From Candidatus Undinarchaeota archaeon (GTDB lineage: Archaea; Undinarchaeota; Undinarchaeia; Undinarchaeales; UBA543), in the NCBI GenBank assembly GCA_964636545.1, contig CAZWSR010000001.1:1-64000 (forward strand): a stretch of DNA of 64,000 nt, read 5' to 3'. Positions 15,142 through 19,020 of the stretch are shown here, piece by piece. The notes below the pieces were generated by a model. It saw only the letters and a list, made by a program, of their open reading frames with translations, ran no database searches and was not told where the DNA came from. Numbering within the stretch: position 1 is the first letter of the stretch; every line of letters begins with the position of its first letter. The position numbers were made by a program, and so were the translations under genes.

Positions 15142-15672
15142 TTATTTCACATCCTCATTATCATAATGTTGCAGTGAAAGCAAATCATATTTTCCTAATT
15201 TCTCTCTACCTTTTAGGAAATCAAGTTCTACAATAAAACACATTCCAGCAACAATGCCGCCAACTTTTTCAACTAAATTCGCTGTTGCTTGAATTGTTCC
15301 ACCAGTTGCAAGAAGATCATCAACAAGTAAAACTTTCTGACCAGGTTTAATTGTATCCTTGTGCATTTCAATTTTGTCAGTACCGTATTCTAATTCATAT
15401 TCTTCAAAAACAATTTTGCTTGGCAGTTTGCCTGGTTTTCGAACAAGTGAGAGTGGTTTGTTAAGTGCAATAGCAAGAGCTCCGCCGAAAATGAAACCGC
15501 GTGACTCAACACCAACAATAACATCAATTTCCTTGTCCTTGTAATGATTAGCAAATGTGTCAATACAGTGCTTGAAAGCTTCTGGACTTTCAAGAATAGT
15601 TGTTATGTCATAGAACAAAATCCCTTCTTTTGGGAAATTTGGTATTTTTCTAATATGTGAGTCAATATCCAT
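15142..15672 (-). CDS. apt: Adenine phosphoribosyltransferase
   Basis: PNFPKEGILFYDIT, ESRGF, RKPGKLP, LEYG, VDDLLATGGT. Confidence 0.97.
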   Translation of the reverse strand: MDIDSHIRKIPNFPKEGILFYDITTILESPEAFKHCIDTFANHYKDKEIDVIVGVESRGFIFGGALAIALNKPLSLVRKPGKLPSKIVFEEYELEYGTDKIEMHKDTIKPGQKVLLVDDLLATGGTIQATANLVEKVGGIVAGMCFIVELDFLKGREKLGKYDLLSLQHYDNEDVK

Positions 15673-15718
15673 AAACTCTTTAAGGAGTGGATGTATTTAA
15701 TTTTAACTGGAGACTAGA

Positions 15719-16510
15719 ATGGCAAATGCAGAAATTGGAATTATAGGAGGCACTGGTGTCTATGATCCAGAGCTTTTGGAAAATGCTGAAGAAGTCAGTA
15801 TTGAAACCCCTTACGGCAAGCCGTCTGAGGTTGCTACTGTTGGAACTTATGCTGGTGTGAATGTTGCATTTATGCCTCGACATGGTGCAAAACACACAAT
15901 TCCACCACATAAAATAAATTTTAGAGCAAATATTCACGCCTTCAAGGAATTAGGTGTAAAATGGATTTTAGCACCACAAGCAGTTGGTTCTCTTCAAGAA
16001 GAATACAAACCAGGTGAGCTTGCTTTTCCAGATCAATTTATTGACAGAACTTGGGGACGACCTCAAACTTTTTATGAAGGTCCACAGGTTTGTCATATTT
16101 CAGTTGCTGAACCATTTTGCAAAGATTTGCGAACTCTTCTTGCTGAAAAAACCAAGGCACTTGGCTACGGAATGCATGAAAAAGGAACTTATGTTTGTAT
16201 TCAAGGACCACGATTTTCAACAAAAGCAGAATCTCAAATGTTTAGACAGTGGAATGGACATATTATTGGAATGACAGCTGTTCCAGAATGTGTTTTAGCT
16301 CGGGAAGCAGAAATTTGCTATTCTTCAGTTGCAATGATTACTGATTATGATGTTTGGAAAGATCATACTGTTACAAATGAAGAAGTTGTTAAATGCATGA
16401 AAGAAAATAACGGGAAAGTGAAAGCACTTTTGAAAGAAGCAATACCTGAAATTCCAAAACTTGCTCGCGAATGCGGGTGCGGGACAGCACTGAAAGGTGC
16501 GATGATGTAG
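15719..16510 (+). CDS. mtnP: 5'-methylthioadenosine phosphorylase
   Basis: IGIIGGTG, TPYGKPS, RHG..H.IPPH.INFRANI, GPRFST.AES, TDYD. Confidence 0.96.
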   Translation: MANAEIGIIGGTGVYDPELLENAEEVSIETPYGKPSEVATVGTYAGVNVAFMPRHGAKHTIPPHKINFRANIHAFKELGVKWILAPQAVGSLQEEYKPGELAFPDQFIDRTWGRPQTFYEGPQVCHISVAEPFCKDLRTLLAEKTKALGYGMHEKGTYVCIQGPRFSTKAESQMFRQWNGHIIGMTAVPECVLAREAEICYSSVAMITDYDVWKDHTVTNEEVVKCMKENNGKVKALLKEAIPEIPKLARECGCGTALKGAMM

Positions 16511-16711
16511 TTAGGCTCGTGTTGAGATTACTTCATCAGGCAAATACTTTTTAGCATTTAGAATTTCAATACCAAGAAGTTGGTTATTAGCTGAAAAATC
16601 AAGATTAATTTCCTGATTCATAGAAATTGTTCTTTTAACTTCTCCTGCGCCGATACTTTCTTTTAGATAAATATATGCAGCATTTGCTTCTTTGTCGTAG
16701 TTTAATTTCAT
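16511..16711 (-). CDS. DUF2283 family small protein
   Basis: YDKEANAAYIYL...INLDF....LLGIEILNA. Confidence 0.85.
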   Translation of the reverse strand: MKLNYDKEANAAYIYLKESIGAGEVKRTISMNQEINLDFSANNQLLGIEILNAKKYLPDEVISTRA

Positions 16712-16757
16712 AAAAATAAGATAGAAACAAGAGTTTATAATGTTTTAGTGGTCTTTT

Positions 16758-16848
16758 GCGCGGGGGCCGGGATTTGAACCCGGGAAAGTCTGTGAAAGAC
16801 TAACACAGTCTTCAGCTGTGCTTGTTAACCAAGCTCCAACACCCCCGC
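16758..16848 (-). tRNA. Atypical type II (long variable arm) tRNA with GAA anticodon
   Basis: GCGGGGG/CCCCCGC acceptor; TTG/CAA D stem; CACAG-CTGAAGA-CTGTG anticodon arm; AGTCT-TTCAC-AGACT V arm; CCGGG-TTCAAAT-CCCGG T arm; G73; no CCA. Confidence 0.85.
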
Positions 16849-16865
16849 AATTTTTATATACTACT

Positions 16866-16940
16866 CAGGCGTATGGTATACACCTGTGAAAGACCTACAC
16901 AGTTCTATACTGTGCTTGTGCCCAAGCTTCGGCACACCCA
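16866..16940 (-). ncRNA. tRNA-derived structured leader (partial paralogue of the adjacent tRNA)
   Basis: Shares AGCTTGG, ACAAGCACAG, ACTGTGT and GTCTTTCACAG with the tRNA; lacks T arm; three hairpins. Confidence 0.55.
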
Positions 16941-16964
16941 TTTTTATTTTGTGCCAGCGGAGAC

Positions 16965-16972
16965 TATATAAA
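16965..16972. promoter_or_regulatory. Bidirectional TATA box (mtaB and the tRNA transcript)
   Basis: TATATAAA on + lies about 30 nt before the mtaB ATG; TTTATATA on - lies about 25 nt before 16940. Confidence 0.5.
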
Positions 16973-17002
16973 TATTAATTAACTGGAGTGAGTTTATTGA
17001 GT

Positions 17003-18184
17003 ATGAAATTCTACATTGAAACTTACGGTTGTTCTAGGAATCAAGCAGATTCAGAAGCAATAGCTGGAGCACTTGCTGAAGAACATGAACAGGTTTTGAA
17101 TGCTAATGACGCCGATATTGTTGTTGTAAACACCTGTATTGTGAAAACTCCAACTGAAAATAAGATTTTGAAAGCTTTGAAGAAATATTCTAATAAAAAA
17201 CTGATTGTTGCTGGTTGTATGTCAGTGGCGCAGGTGGAGTTAATTAAAGAAACAGTGCCAAATGCAGAAATTTGGGGAGTTAAGCATGAGGATGTTCTGG
17301 AAGGACCGCGGATTAGAACAAATAAAATTGTTAGTATAATTCCGATTTCATCTGGATGTCTTGGAGATTGTACTTATTGTATTGTTAAAAAAGCTCGTGG
17401 AAAATTAAAAAGTTATTCTCAAGAGAAAATAATTTCTGCAATTGAGAAATCAGTTGCTGATGGTTGTAAGGAAATTTGGATAACTGCTCAGGACACTGGA
17501 GCTTATGGAATTGACACTGGAACAAGCTTGCCAGCGCTTTTAGAGGAAATTTGCAAAGTTTCTGGAGATTTCAGGGTTCGGGTTGGTATGATGAACCCAA
17601 ATCATGCAATGAAAATGCTTCCAGCACTTGTGAAAGCACTTCAGCACGAGAAAATGTTCAAGTTTTTGCATTTGCCAGTTCAGTCAGGAAATGACAAAGT
17701 TTTGAAAGAAATGAATCGATTTTACACTGTTGCTGATTATAAGAAAATAATTGAGTTTGTTAAGAAAGAAATTCCACAAATTACAATTTCCACTGATGTT
17801 ATTGTTGGTTTTCCTGGAGAAACTAATGAGCAATTTGAAGAAAGTTTGAAATTAGTTGAGCAGACAGAGCCAGATATTGTGAATATTTCAAGATATGGAG
17901 CACGGCCGGGCACTCCTGCAGCTGAACTTGAACAACACCAAGAAATTACTAAAAAAGAAAGGAGCAGAGCAATGACAATACTTGTTAGGCAAATTGGGCA
18001 AAAGCAGAATAATGAGTGGTTAGATTGGGAAGGAGAAGTTCTGATTGATGAAATTGGCAAAGAAAATGATTTTATTGGAAGAAATTTTGCGTATAAGCCA
18101 ATTGTTGTGAAAGGAAAACGAGAACTTGGTGAGTTTGTTAAAATTAAGGTTGGGAAAGCAACTGAGAATTATTTAGTTTCTTAA
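17003..18184 (+). CDS. MiaB-like tRNA methylthiotransferase (archaeal MtaB/e-MtaB type)
   Basis: ETYGCSRN..DSE, NTC.VK, CLGDCTYC radical SAM motif, TDVIVGFPGET, C-terminal TRAM. Confidence 0.92.
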   Translation: MKFYIETYGCSRNQADSEAIAGALAEEHEQVLNANDADIVVVNTCIVKTPTENKILKALKKYSNKKLIVAGCMSVAQVELIKETVPNAEIWGVKHEDVLEGPRIRTNKIVSIIPISSGCLGDCTYCIVKKARGKLKSYSQEKIISAIEKSVADGCKEIWITAQDTGAYGIDTGTSLPALLEEICKVSGDFRVRVGMMNPNHAMKMLPALVKALQHEKMFKFLHLPVQSGNDKVLKEMNRFYTVADYKKIIEFVKKEIPQITISTDVIVGFPGETNEQFEESLKLVEQTEPDIVNISRYGARPGTPAAELEQHQEITKKERSRAMTILVRQIGQKQNNEWLDWEGEVLIDEIGKENDFIGRNFAYKPIVVKGKRELGEFVKIKVGKATENYLVS

Positions 18185-19020
18185 GAGAATAGTAATTCTT
18201 AAAAACAATGAAAACCAATAGGACTTAATGAGAGACCCAACAAAAAATTTAAAACATGCTCTTGAAAAAGTAATAGAGCTATATCCAGAATATGCTAATG
18301 AAAAAACTATTGATGTTTTTTCAGAAAAAATAGAAGGAAATATACCATACAAAGGCGTGACACTTGCGATGTATCTCAGAATCCTCTCAAACGCCTATAG
18401 AAACAATCAAGAGAAATTGACAGAAGGATACATAAAAGATGCAGTAGGCAATAAAAATCGAAAAAAACAATGTATACTGATACTAAAACAGGAACAAGAA
18501 TTAACAAAAAAAGTAGCAGAGATATCACACAATATAATTAATAAAAGTAGAATATCATCATTTGAAAAAGTAGTGGAATTGTATCCAAAATACTTTGACG
18601 AAAAAAATATGCGAGATTTTTCAAAAAAAATAAGAGGAGAAATAGAATACTCAGCTGCAACACTGGCTCAGCAACTTGGTATTCTCGCAGATGCCTACAA
18701 AAATAACACAGGAGATCTCACAGAAAAGAGTATACAACGAATAAGGTGTACGCATAGAAATAGAAAAAACCAACTCATAAGCCTATTAAAACACGAACCA
18801 GAATTAATGAAAACAGTAGCAAAAATTGGTTGTTTCTTCAAAAACAAAAAAAGATTCAGAGGAAAAGAGTATCTTAAAGAAAAATACTATGGAAGCGGAA
18901 TATTGTTAGAAAAACTTGCACACTTTCTAGAAATAATGTTTGGATGGAAACCTACAATCCTTAATCAAGCAGCACATAATCCAAGGGCAAGAAGAGCCTG
19001 AGAATTATTTAGTTTCTTAA
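18162..19020. mobile_element. Putative integrated single-gene cassette with perfect 23-bp direct repeats
   Basis: CTGAGAATTATTTAGTTTCTTAA at 18162-18184 (methylthiotransferase 3' end) and 18998-19020. Confidence 0.8.
18228..19001 (+). CDS. Hypothetical protein made of two tandem ~100-aa repeats
   Basis: EKVIELYPEY..SEKIEG.I.Y...TLA..L.IL..AY.NN...LTE...NRK.Q.I..LK.E.EL.K.VA.I occurs twice. Confidence 0.75.
   Translation: MRDPTKNLKHALEKVIELYPEYANEKTIDVFSEKIEGNIPYKGVTLAMYLRILSNAYRNNQEKLTEGYIKDAVGNKNRKKQCILILKQEQELTKKVAEISHNIINKSRISSFEKVVELYPKYFDEKNMRDFSKKIRGEIEYSAATLAQQLGILADAYKNNTGDLTEKSIQRIRCTHRNRKNQLISLLKHEPELMKTVAKIGCFFKNKKRFRGKEYLKEKYYGSGILLEKLAHFLEIMFGWKPTILNQAAHNPRARRA

Follow-up and report, generated by a model that had tools for sequence, protein, structure and literature searches.

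What does an incomplete copy of a tRNA do directly upstream of the complete tRNA gene that it resembles? This question is raised by positions 16849-16972 of a 64,000-nt stretch of DNA (the window) from a marine Undinarchaeota metagenome-assembled genome (DPANN phylum; 840 kb in 39 contigs, 37% G+C, tRNAs with introns; assembly completeness 82.8%). Here, the minus strand carries a structured, tRNA-like element, the leader, ahead of an odd class-II tRNA, i.e. one with a long variable (V) arm, and behind this tRNA a short 3' trailer is complementary to the V arm. Judged by sequence, the three parts belong to a conserved module around a supernumerary, Ser-like class-II tRNA with an anticodon for hydrophobic codons, and the leader looks like a working partner of this tRNA rather than mere debris. 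We tentatively favour the possibility that it is a co-evolving, tRNA-derived 5' leader that may clamp the tRNA precursor via the trailer. The arrangement is not an assembly artefact, as a contig from the run of a different study covers 16450-17091 with no difference to the window, and it is more than chance, as the same layout recurs in four other genomes.

The leader (16940-16884) can be aligned with positions 5 to ~60 of the tRNA, with 45 of 58 columns being identical, and the identical blocks include AGCTTGG, ACAAGCACAG, CTGTGT and GTCTTTCACAG. Copy and full gene are only ~35 nt apart. The copy has neither positions 1-4 of the acceptor nor the 3' strands of the T stem and the acceptor stem and is thus no tRNA gene itself; no tRNA gene is found at 16849-16972 by ARAGORN or by Rfam (E up to 10, both strands). 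Its counterpart of the anticodon loop, TATAGAA at 16909-16903, has A33 and UAG in the place of the anticodon. The predicted minimum free energy (MFE) fold of the leader has -30.0 kcal/mol, compared with -20.66 +/- 2.79 kcal/mol for shuffled sequences (z -3.35; none of 200 shuffles was as good), and contains both hairpin 1, a strengthened derivative of the D arm, and hairpin 3 (Table 1). The partial copy, its loop and these two hairpins had been described in a first-pass annotation of the window, and all of them hold. A diversity-generating retroelement with its pair of template and variable repeats was considered and rejected, as the differences between leader and tRNA are, by eye, not confined to adenines. 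Visual inspection also revealed no RUGAUGA or CUGA boxes of a C/D-box guide RNA on either strand of the leader, and an exact match of 15 nt between the leader and C5:7026-7040 (E = 0.054) looks like chance.

ARAGORN recognizes the downstream gene as a 91-nt tRNA (16758-16848, minus strand) with anticodon GAA and finds no intron in its intron mode. The Rfam tRNA model gives 49.0 bits if a 501-nt region is searched, and the whole-window Rfam search at the gathering threshold does not list the gene. G9 and U33 are present as well. As the source genome (G000) already has an ordinary tRNA-Phe(GAA) on contig C5 and Leu tRNAs with the anticodons GAG, TAG, TAA, and CAA, the odd tRNA is supernumerary. 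A long V arm of free sequence together with discriminator base G73 defines the Ser type of tRNA. The normal Ser tRNAs of the phylum have G73, and the normal Leu tRNAs that were read have A73 and, in most but not all cases, a CTTAGTG V loop. The odd tRNA combines G73 with a V loop unrelated to CTTAGTG and is, thus, Ser-like and not Leu-like by these identity rules. The same rule, long V arm plus G73, is given in the available part of the report on bacterial allo-tRNAs (PMC5389517). In each of the five genomes checked a single serS gene exceeds the cut-off (C2:88142-89389 in G000), i.e. there is no extra SerRS paralogue above it, and no second full-length leuS-like gene was found. The Leu ancestry proposed in the first-pass annotation retains one point in its favour, namely that the congener G001 has GAG in both its tRNA and its leader, but the body of the tRNA argues for Ser.

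BLAST identified one relative of the odd tRNA, that of G001, with 70% identity over the tRNA (the ordinary tRNA-Leu(GAG) of the two genomes has 85%), and its upstream region likewise repeats part of this tRNA. A covariance model (R2) derived from these two odd tRNAs was then used to search the phylum's 17 genomes. It gave 72 matches, distributed over all 17 genomes, 67 of which were inspected (the others being G006:C2:102393, G005:C20:47, G005:C13:12705, G001:C20:6120, and G014:C7:104156). Sixty are ordinary tRNAs, i.e. Ser and Leu tRNAs, many with introns, and a few other isotypes among the weakest matches, and seven are of the odd type. Six of the latter belong to complete units, so that the module is found six times in five genomes from three families of Undinarchaeales: G000 (anticodon GAA), G001 (GAG), G010:C30, G010:C25, and G008 (all UAU), and G011 (GAU). 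In the seventh, G010:C26, which has the loop CTTAAGA, a 5' end of the leader type is fused to a complete 3' part. A35, G37, and G73 are shared by all seven, as is a V stem of 4-6 bp, as expected of Ser-type class-II tRNAs. When the six complete odd tRNAs and one ordinary Ser tRNA were aligned to the model, pairing holds in 99.4% of the cells, and both partners vary in 18 of the 24 pairs (0 of 500 shuffles).

Sequence patterns were used as well. GGGGTGNTGGANNNTGGN{0,1}TAACA matched only G000 and G001 among the 17 genomes, and ATATAAAN{3,5}GCNGRGGTGNNNGARC matched 25 stretches in metagenome contigs, among them one true unit that is identical to the G001 unit over ~300 nt. The latter pattern also matched 45 stretches in genome contigs, the 12 archaeal ones of which were read, with three true units (G001, G008, G010), the rest being ordinary tRNAs or chance, and a single stretch in viral contigs, a chance match inside an apparent coding region. 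Some of the tRNAs recovered are unusual in their own right. Three odd tRNAs contain a T-loop insert of 13-22 nt (L028 in G011, L040 in G010:C25, and L063 in G010:C26), presumably an intron at an unusual position. Inserts of 39-54 nt, flanked by direct repeats of 5-8 nt, interrupt the 5' acceptor strand in L040, where the insert lies upstream of the odd tRNA, and in L064 (G012:C10, tRNA-Ser(UGA)). Both share the end CCCG(C)GGCTCG-Y-ATA-M-GCTC and are probably related non-canonical introns.

The order of parts is the same throughout: promoter, A-rich run, 5' hairpin, remains of the D and anticodon arms and V-arm copy, followed by a spacer of 22-24 nt, the TATA-like box TATATAAA, 3-4 nt, G1 of the tRNA, the tRNA itself and the trailer. 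When compared with the 11 other sequences, leaders and tRNAs together, each leader is most similar to its own tRNA (6/6). The V-arm copy, 11-13 nt that are near-identical to the cognate tRNA, is the best-preserved part of the leader in every unit, although the V arms share nothing across units. A 5'-proximal hairpin of 5-9 bp is likewise present in all six leaders, each time with a different sequence, and the version of G008 derives from the anticodon arm. Hairpin 2 is retained in G000, G008 and, in part, in G001, but deleted or degenerate in G011 and in the two G010 units, G010a and G010b; hairpin 3 has no counterpart in the other units, and the other parts of the leaders carry unit-specific deletions. 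In the spacer the length is kept, but not the sequence. Structural conservation in relatives, to which the first-pass annotation had tied its idea of a functional leader, therefore applies to the first hairpin and the V-arm copy, but not to the three-hairpin fold.

The trailer, which begins 2-5 nt past G73, is complementary to the 5' strand and loop of the V arm in all six units. Its longest Watson-Crick helix with the cognate leader comprises 7, 8, 8, 11, 6, and 7 nt, as compared with 3-7 nt for the 30 non-cognate pairs, although in G010b the 7-nt helix falls outside the V-arm copy, with which 6 nt match (by eye). With its own tRNA, the trailer can form helices of 6, 7, 9, 9, 6, and 7 nt, always at tRNA positions 45-49, whereas the trailers of 34 ordinary Ser and Leu tRNAs of the phylum reach 3-6 nt (6 nt in two cases), none of them at the 5' side of the V arm. 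Shuffled trailers attain the observed length in 42, 53, 10, 4, 260, and 91 of 2000 trials. By eye, a complement describes the trailer better than a direct but decayed copy of the V arm's 3' strand would, and the trailer tracks the leader's version of the sequence in G000, G001, and G008 and the tRNA's version in the two G010 units. Judging from the L-shape of a folded tRNA, a linker of a few nt cannot reach the tRNA's own V arm, and thus it is the leader that is the sterically possible partner of the trailer. Unconstrained MFE folds of leader, tRNA, and 16 further nt pair leader and trailer in five of the six units. The helices are continuous, and no bulge-helix-bulge motif was seen in them, although no search aimed at this motif was made.

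The signals for transcription fit the leader as well. The TATA box TTTATATA is located 25 nt before GGGTG at the 5' end of the leader, as annotated earlier, and predicts a transcription start at ~16943-16941, i.e. 1-3 nt before GGGTG. It is part of a composite motif, ATAAACTCAC-N3-AGTTRR (AA/GG)-N5-TATA, that recurs about ten times in the genome, with the TATA box 22-24 nt ahead of an ATG at the three loci counted, and that is conserved upstream of the G001 and G010 leaders. Sites of the composite motif include 16965-16997 (-) and 62707 (+) in the window as well as C2:68212, C3:68018, C4:29911, C10:804, C1:86115, and others; possible roles are those of a transcription-factor site or of an extended TFB recognition element. 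In each of the runs X4, X6, X7, and X10, a second contig shares only 16967-17002 (36 nt, 4 differences) with the locus, and this contig corresponds to the promoter motif at C2:68212. Ordinary tRNAs have a TATA box ~25-30 nt upstream, whereas five of the six odd tRNAs have none there, G011 being the exception. As the leader promoter is correctly spaced and the odd tRNAs except for that of G011 have no promoter of their own, co-transcription is the simplest reading, and leader and tRNA are probably one transcript, as the first-pass annotation had suggested. RNase P RNA is present in the genome (138.7 bits), and a long leader would therefore be removable.

The first-pass annotation had included neither the trailer complementarity nor a possible antisense gene (see below) nor the second TATA box (TATA2), which abuts the tRNA. 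The exact sequence TATATAAA is found 3-4 nt before G1 in four units and is displaced in G011; in G010b, 4 nt separate the box from a first GCCGG with an intron-like insert behind it. So close to G1, the box cannot serve the tRNA.

Table 1. Positions of the module and an adjacent open reading frame (ORF) in the window.
Feature	Position	Strand	Sequence elements and basis
Sense promoter	16965..16997	-	ATAAACTCAC (16997-16988), AGTTAA (16984-16979), TATA box TTTATATA (16972-16965)
Leader hairpin 1, TGTGCC-GAAGCTTG-GGCACA	16917..16936	-	Strengthened derivative of tRNA D arm; MFE fold
Leader hairpin 2, anticodon-arm copy GCACAG-TATAGAA-CTGTGT	16897..16915	-	Alignment and MFE fold
V-arm copy	16884..16896	-	GTCTTTCACAG (16894-16884) equals the tRNA V arm exactly; GGTCTTT (16895-16889) complements trailer
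Leader hairpin 3, CAGGTGTA-TACCA-TACGCCTG	16866..16886	-	MFE fold; in spacer of kept length but unkept sequence
TATA2 box, TATATAAA (16860-16853) plus AATT, abutting tRNA position 1	16849..16860		+ strand reads GCAA-TTTTTATATA
Odd class-II tRNA	16759..16848	-	7/5 cloverleaf, long V arm, anticodon GAA, G37, G73; ARAGORN, Rfam, family co-variation
Trailer segment AAAGACC	16750..16756	-	Complements leader GGTCTTT and 6 nt of the tRNA's own V arm
Small DUF2283 ORF downstream of odd tRNA	16511..16711	-	Pfam PF10049, E = 4e-14

Based on these findings, we tentatively propose that transcription from the canonical promoter begins at GGGTG of the leader and continues through the tRNA. The leader would hold a single-stranded copy of the 5' strand and loop of its own tRNA's V arm, and this copy could pair with the trailer that starts just behind the discriminator base. 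The resulting helix of 7-11 bp would close the precursor around the tRNA and prevent the trailer from pairing into the V arm of this tRNA, with the D-arm-derived 5' hairpin capping the transcript, until RNase P and tRNase Z free the tRNA. Such a clamp might gate or chaperone the maturation of a tRNA whose unrestrained activity would cause mistranslation. Sequence homology, promoter geometry, the three-way co-variation of leader, tRNA, and trailer and the predicted fold form the basis of this proposal, and from them we infer transcription, pairing in vivo and the gating role, i.e. everything that concerns function. As the leader is conserved and co-varies with tRNA and trailer, a tRNA-derived regulatory role, which the first-pass annotation had listed next to that of a decoy, is favoured over plain decay.

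Several observations do not sit easily with a clamp. The helices are short. G011 and G010b have weak ones (6-7 nt), which shuffled trailers equal most often, and the fold of G010b is the one without the clamp. Co-transcription is doubtful in G011, where an inserted hairpin, T runs and an additional promoter separate the leader from the tRNA. The identity between leader and V arm reaches beyond the part that is paired with the trailer, for which a clamp gives no reason, nor does it explain why TATATAAA is conserved beside G1. The folding energies of the six leaders, calculated for the sense and the antisense orientation, pick no strand. Finally, the sample consists of six units from related genomes only, and all 20 records listed for 15500-18500 of the window are DNA contigs.

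A product of the opposite strand is a strong rival that we nevertheless consider somewhat unlikely. TATA2 would then drive the synthesis of a small RNA of ~60 nt that acts as antidote or regulator of the cognate tRNA. This RNA would start with the complement of the V-arm copy, i.e. with a 5' seed complementary to the V arm, continue across the complement of the leader and end with a hairpin and a T run, and it would mask the V arm, the D arm and the anticodon stem of the tRNA; the sense clamp may act alongside. Outside the tRNA, no element of the module is conserved as well as TATATAAA, and the other strand reads a purine-rich stretch and then TTTATATA. Yet the box is nearly palindromic, leaving its direction ambiguous, and an A-rich run before the tRNA start is also found at normal tRNA genes. 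In all six units TATA2 and the end of the V identity block are 22-24 nt apart, just as TATA box and ATG are at other promoters of this genome, but the sequence of the spacer between them is not conserved. Moreover, the other strand has, in each of the six units, a hairpin of -7.2 to -11.8 kcal/mol with a run of 5-7 T no more than 16 nt behind it, although archaeal transcription termination does not need a hairpin. Box, hairpin and T run are thus arranged as in a small antisense gene with a V-arm-complementary 5' end. Among the transitions between leader and tRNA, 25 would leave an antisense RNA able to form G-U pairs with the tRNA and 8 would not (p = 0.0046); however, 17 of the 25 favourable ones are leader-A/tRNA-G, which is also expected of the AT-biased decay of a relic. 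Also in favour of an antisense product, the leader of G011, cut off from its tRNA, still keeps 16 of 17 V-arm positions (by eye). On the other hand, the correctly oriented sense promoter faces the putative antisense gene, and the complementarity of the trailer is left unexplained.

As a fallback, the leader might be a non-functional relic of a tandem duplication that is kept similar to the tRNA by gene conversion or recurrent unequal recombination, which we regard as unlikely. The large deletions do differ between leaders, with G010a lacking the anticodon arm and G008 the D arm, and the hairpin-3 region is not conserved in sequence. G010:C26 looks recombinant, showing that recombination between the repeats takes place, and duplications of this kind occur elsewhere in the phylum, as the normal tRNA-Ser(CGA) of the congeners G008 and G005 carry a 22-nt 5' partial copy upstream as well. 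In these genes (L161 at G008:C12 and L048 at G005:C3) positions 1-22 are repeated ~70 nt upstream. Behind the copy come CCCGGC, able to base-pair with it, and a T run, and the upstream 43 nt have been duplicated as well in G005. Nevertheless, six units in five genomes keep the V-arm copy, the first hairpin, the TATA2 box and the length of the spacer, which a decayed duplicate would not show, and a trailer that is complementary to the V arm and changes with it in all units cannot arise by gene conversion. Neither a plainly decaying duplicate nor one under gene conversion explains this trailer, a first hairpin rebuilt and strengthened from differing sequences, the exact TATATAAA box, the fixed spacer of 22-24 nt or the retention over three families with genomes of ~0.6-1 Mb. 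Very improbable is a scar of a mobile-element attachment site (a partial attL/attR copy) or the 5' half of a split tRNA. Partial tRNA copies commonly stem from the integration of mobile elements, according to the available part of PMC9897764, and the position of the module differs between congeners, while relatives have empty sites. However, the copy is only ~35 nt away from the full gene, it is the 5' part that is copied, with positions 1-4 missing, and the two copies do not flank an integrase-bearing element; no integrase or viral gene was found among the neighbouring genes examined, which are housekeeping genes. As to a split tRNA, which the first-pass annotation had also offered, neither a 3' half nor a complementary sequence was found in the 82.8%-complete assembly, where blastn-short searches of all 39 contigs with the leader and its 3' part gave only chance matches of 10-15 nt, and the downstream tRNA is complete.

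Sense and antisense functions might also be combined, and although we judge it improbable, the module could be a self-contained safety catch around a potentially toxic, Ser-accepting tRNA that reads Ile, Leu, or Phe codons. The hypervariable V arm, which is needed by SerRS, would be masked in cis by the trailer and in trans by an antisense RNA from the leader DNA, and the sense leader would set the tRNA free by acting as the corresponding decoy. A private V-arm 'address' marks each copy, and three different addresses are present in G010. Private addresses together with new chromosomal sites between congeners would be cassette-like behaviour, and the whole might then resemble an RNA-only toxin-antitoxin or addiction-like cassette that permits regulated mistranslation in a DPANN archaeon.

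The units sit in differing chromosomal surroundings. The G001 unit lies between a UDP-GlcNAc 2-epimerase-like gene, named from its translation only, and an oxidoreductase gene, and in G002 the same two genes are adjacent, ~100 nt apart, without the ~310-nt unit. Conversely, the G000 unit and the DUF2283 ORF sit between the MTAP gene and the MiaB-like gene, and at this site of G001 the stop codon of the first gene overlaps the start codon of the second; the ~490 nt present in G000, including the DUF2283 ORF, are absent there. As these comparisons show occupied and empty sites, the module appears, by genome comparison, to be gained and lost at differing chromosomal positions. At the borders of both insertions only weak, ambiguous repeats were seen by eye, instead of clear terminal inverted repeats or target-site duplications. 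The divergent gene, annotated earlier as a tRNA methylthiotransferase, indeed encodes the UPF0004, Radical_SAM, and TRAM domains of a MiaB/MtaB-like enzyme, and the wider neighbourhood comprises MCM, TBP, SAHH, APRT, MTAP, TFE, PurM, LipA, and thioredoxin genes. No DUF2283 counterpart was found beside the other units. The surroundings of other units show some further features: a TFE (TFIIE-alpha) gene lies less than ~1 kb from the unit in two families (L025 642-1283 in G010:C30; L026 1304-1681 in G008:C36), and an RlaP RNA-repair nucleotidyltransferase gene is found ~0.4 kb downstream of the G010:C25 unit (L040 280-1086). Additionally, a tRNA-Ser(GCU) with a D-loop insert is located ~370 nt downstream of the G010:C30 odd tRNA (L025 1961-2076), and an unannotated 66-aa ORF with no Pfam match lies between the two.

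In the open-access literature searched we found no described counterpart of a self-copied leader, but several systems resemble parts of the module. In split and permuted archaeal tRNA genes and in the leader-trailer processing stems of archaeal rRNA the flanks pair across the mature RNA, as suggested here, and these processing helices contain a bulge-helix-bulge motif that is cut by the splicing endonuclease; in contrast, the helix of the module is uninterrupted over its 6-11 bp, and the tRNA itself is neither split nor permuted. In E. coli, 3'ETS-leuZ, a spacer of a pre-tRNA, acts as a sponge for small RNAs and is thus likewise a piece of a precursor outside the mature tRNA that regulates by base-pairing, but it is not derived from its tRNA and pairs with unrelated small RNAs. 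Integrating elements duplicate the 3' part of a tRNA gene, whereas here the duplicated part is the 5' one, and it co-varies with the trailer. A partial and a complete tRNA copy in direct orientation are common to the module and to integration events, but in the cases covered by the part of PMC9897764 available the copies flank 9-23 kb of foreign DNA instead of being ~35 nt apart.

The closest relatives in kind of the odd tRNA are class-II tRNAs with 'wrong' anticodons. Bacterial allo-tRNAs (Mukai et al. 2017, PMC5389517) have the identity elements of the Ser type, a long V arm with G73 or U73, and non-serine anticodons, UAU being predominant, and in these respects they are similar to the odd tRNAs. 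They are patchily distributed, often next to toxin-antitoxin or transposon genes, and possibly operate outside ordinary translation, as far as the available text of this report goes. Their 8/4 or 9/3 acceptor/T stems form a 12-bp acceptor branch, whereas the odd tRNAs, which occur in archaeal hosts, have an acceptor stem of 7 bp and a T stem of 5 bp that co-vary across the family, and pairing of a self-derived leader with a trailer is not described for allo-tRNAs in the same part of the report (PMC5389517). Nematode nev-tRNAs are also supernumerary class-II tRNAs with anticodons for neither Leu nor Ser, including Ile(UAU), but they are eukaryotic, are charged with Leu in vitro and are not reported to have a leader copy in the accessible parts of the two reports (PMC3333845, PMC4300185). 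If real, the odd tRNAs would be the first archaeal counterpart of allo-tRNAs and nev-tRNAs, and the module would show a way to leash such an adaptor, namely by a self-copied leader, a V-arm-complementary trailer and, possibly, an antisense RNA. This would bear not only on the control of natural mistranslating tRNAs, but also on the role of pre-tRNA flanks as cognate-specific regulators.
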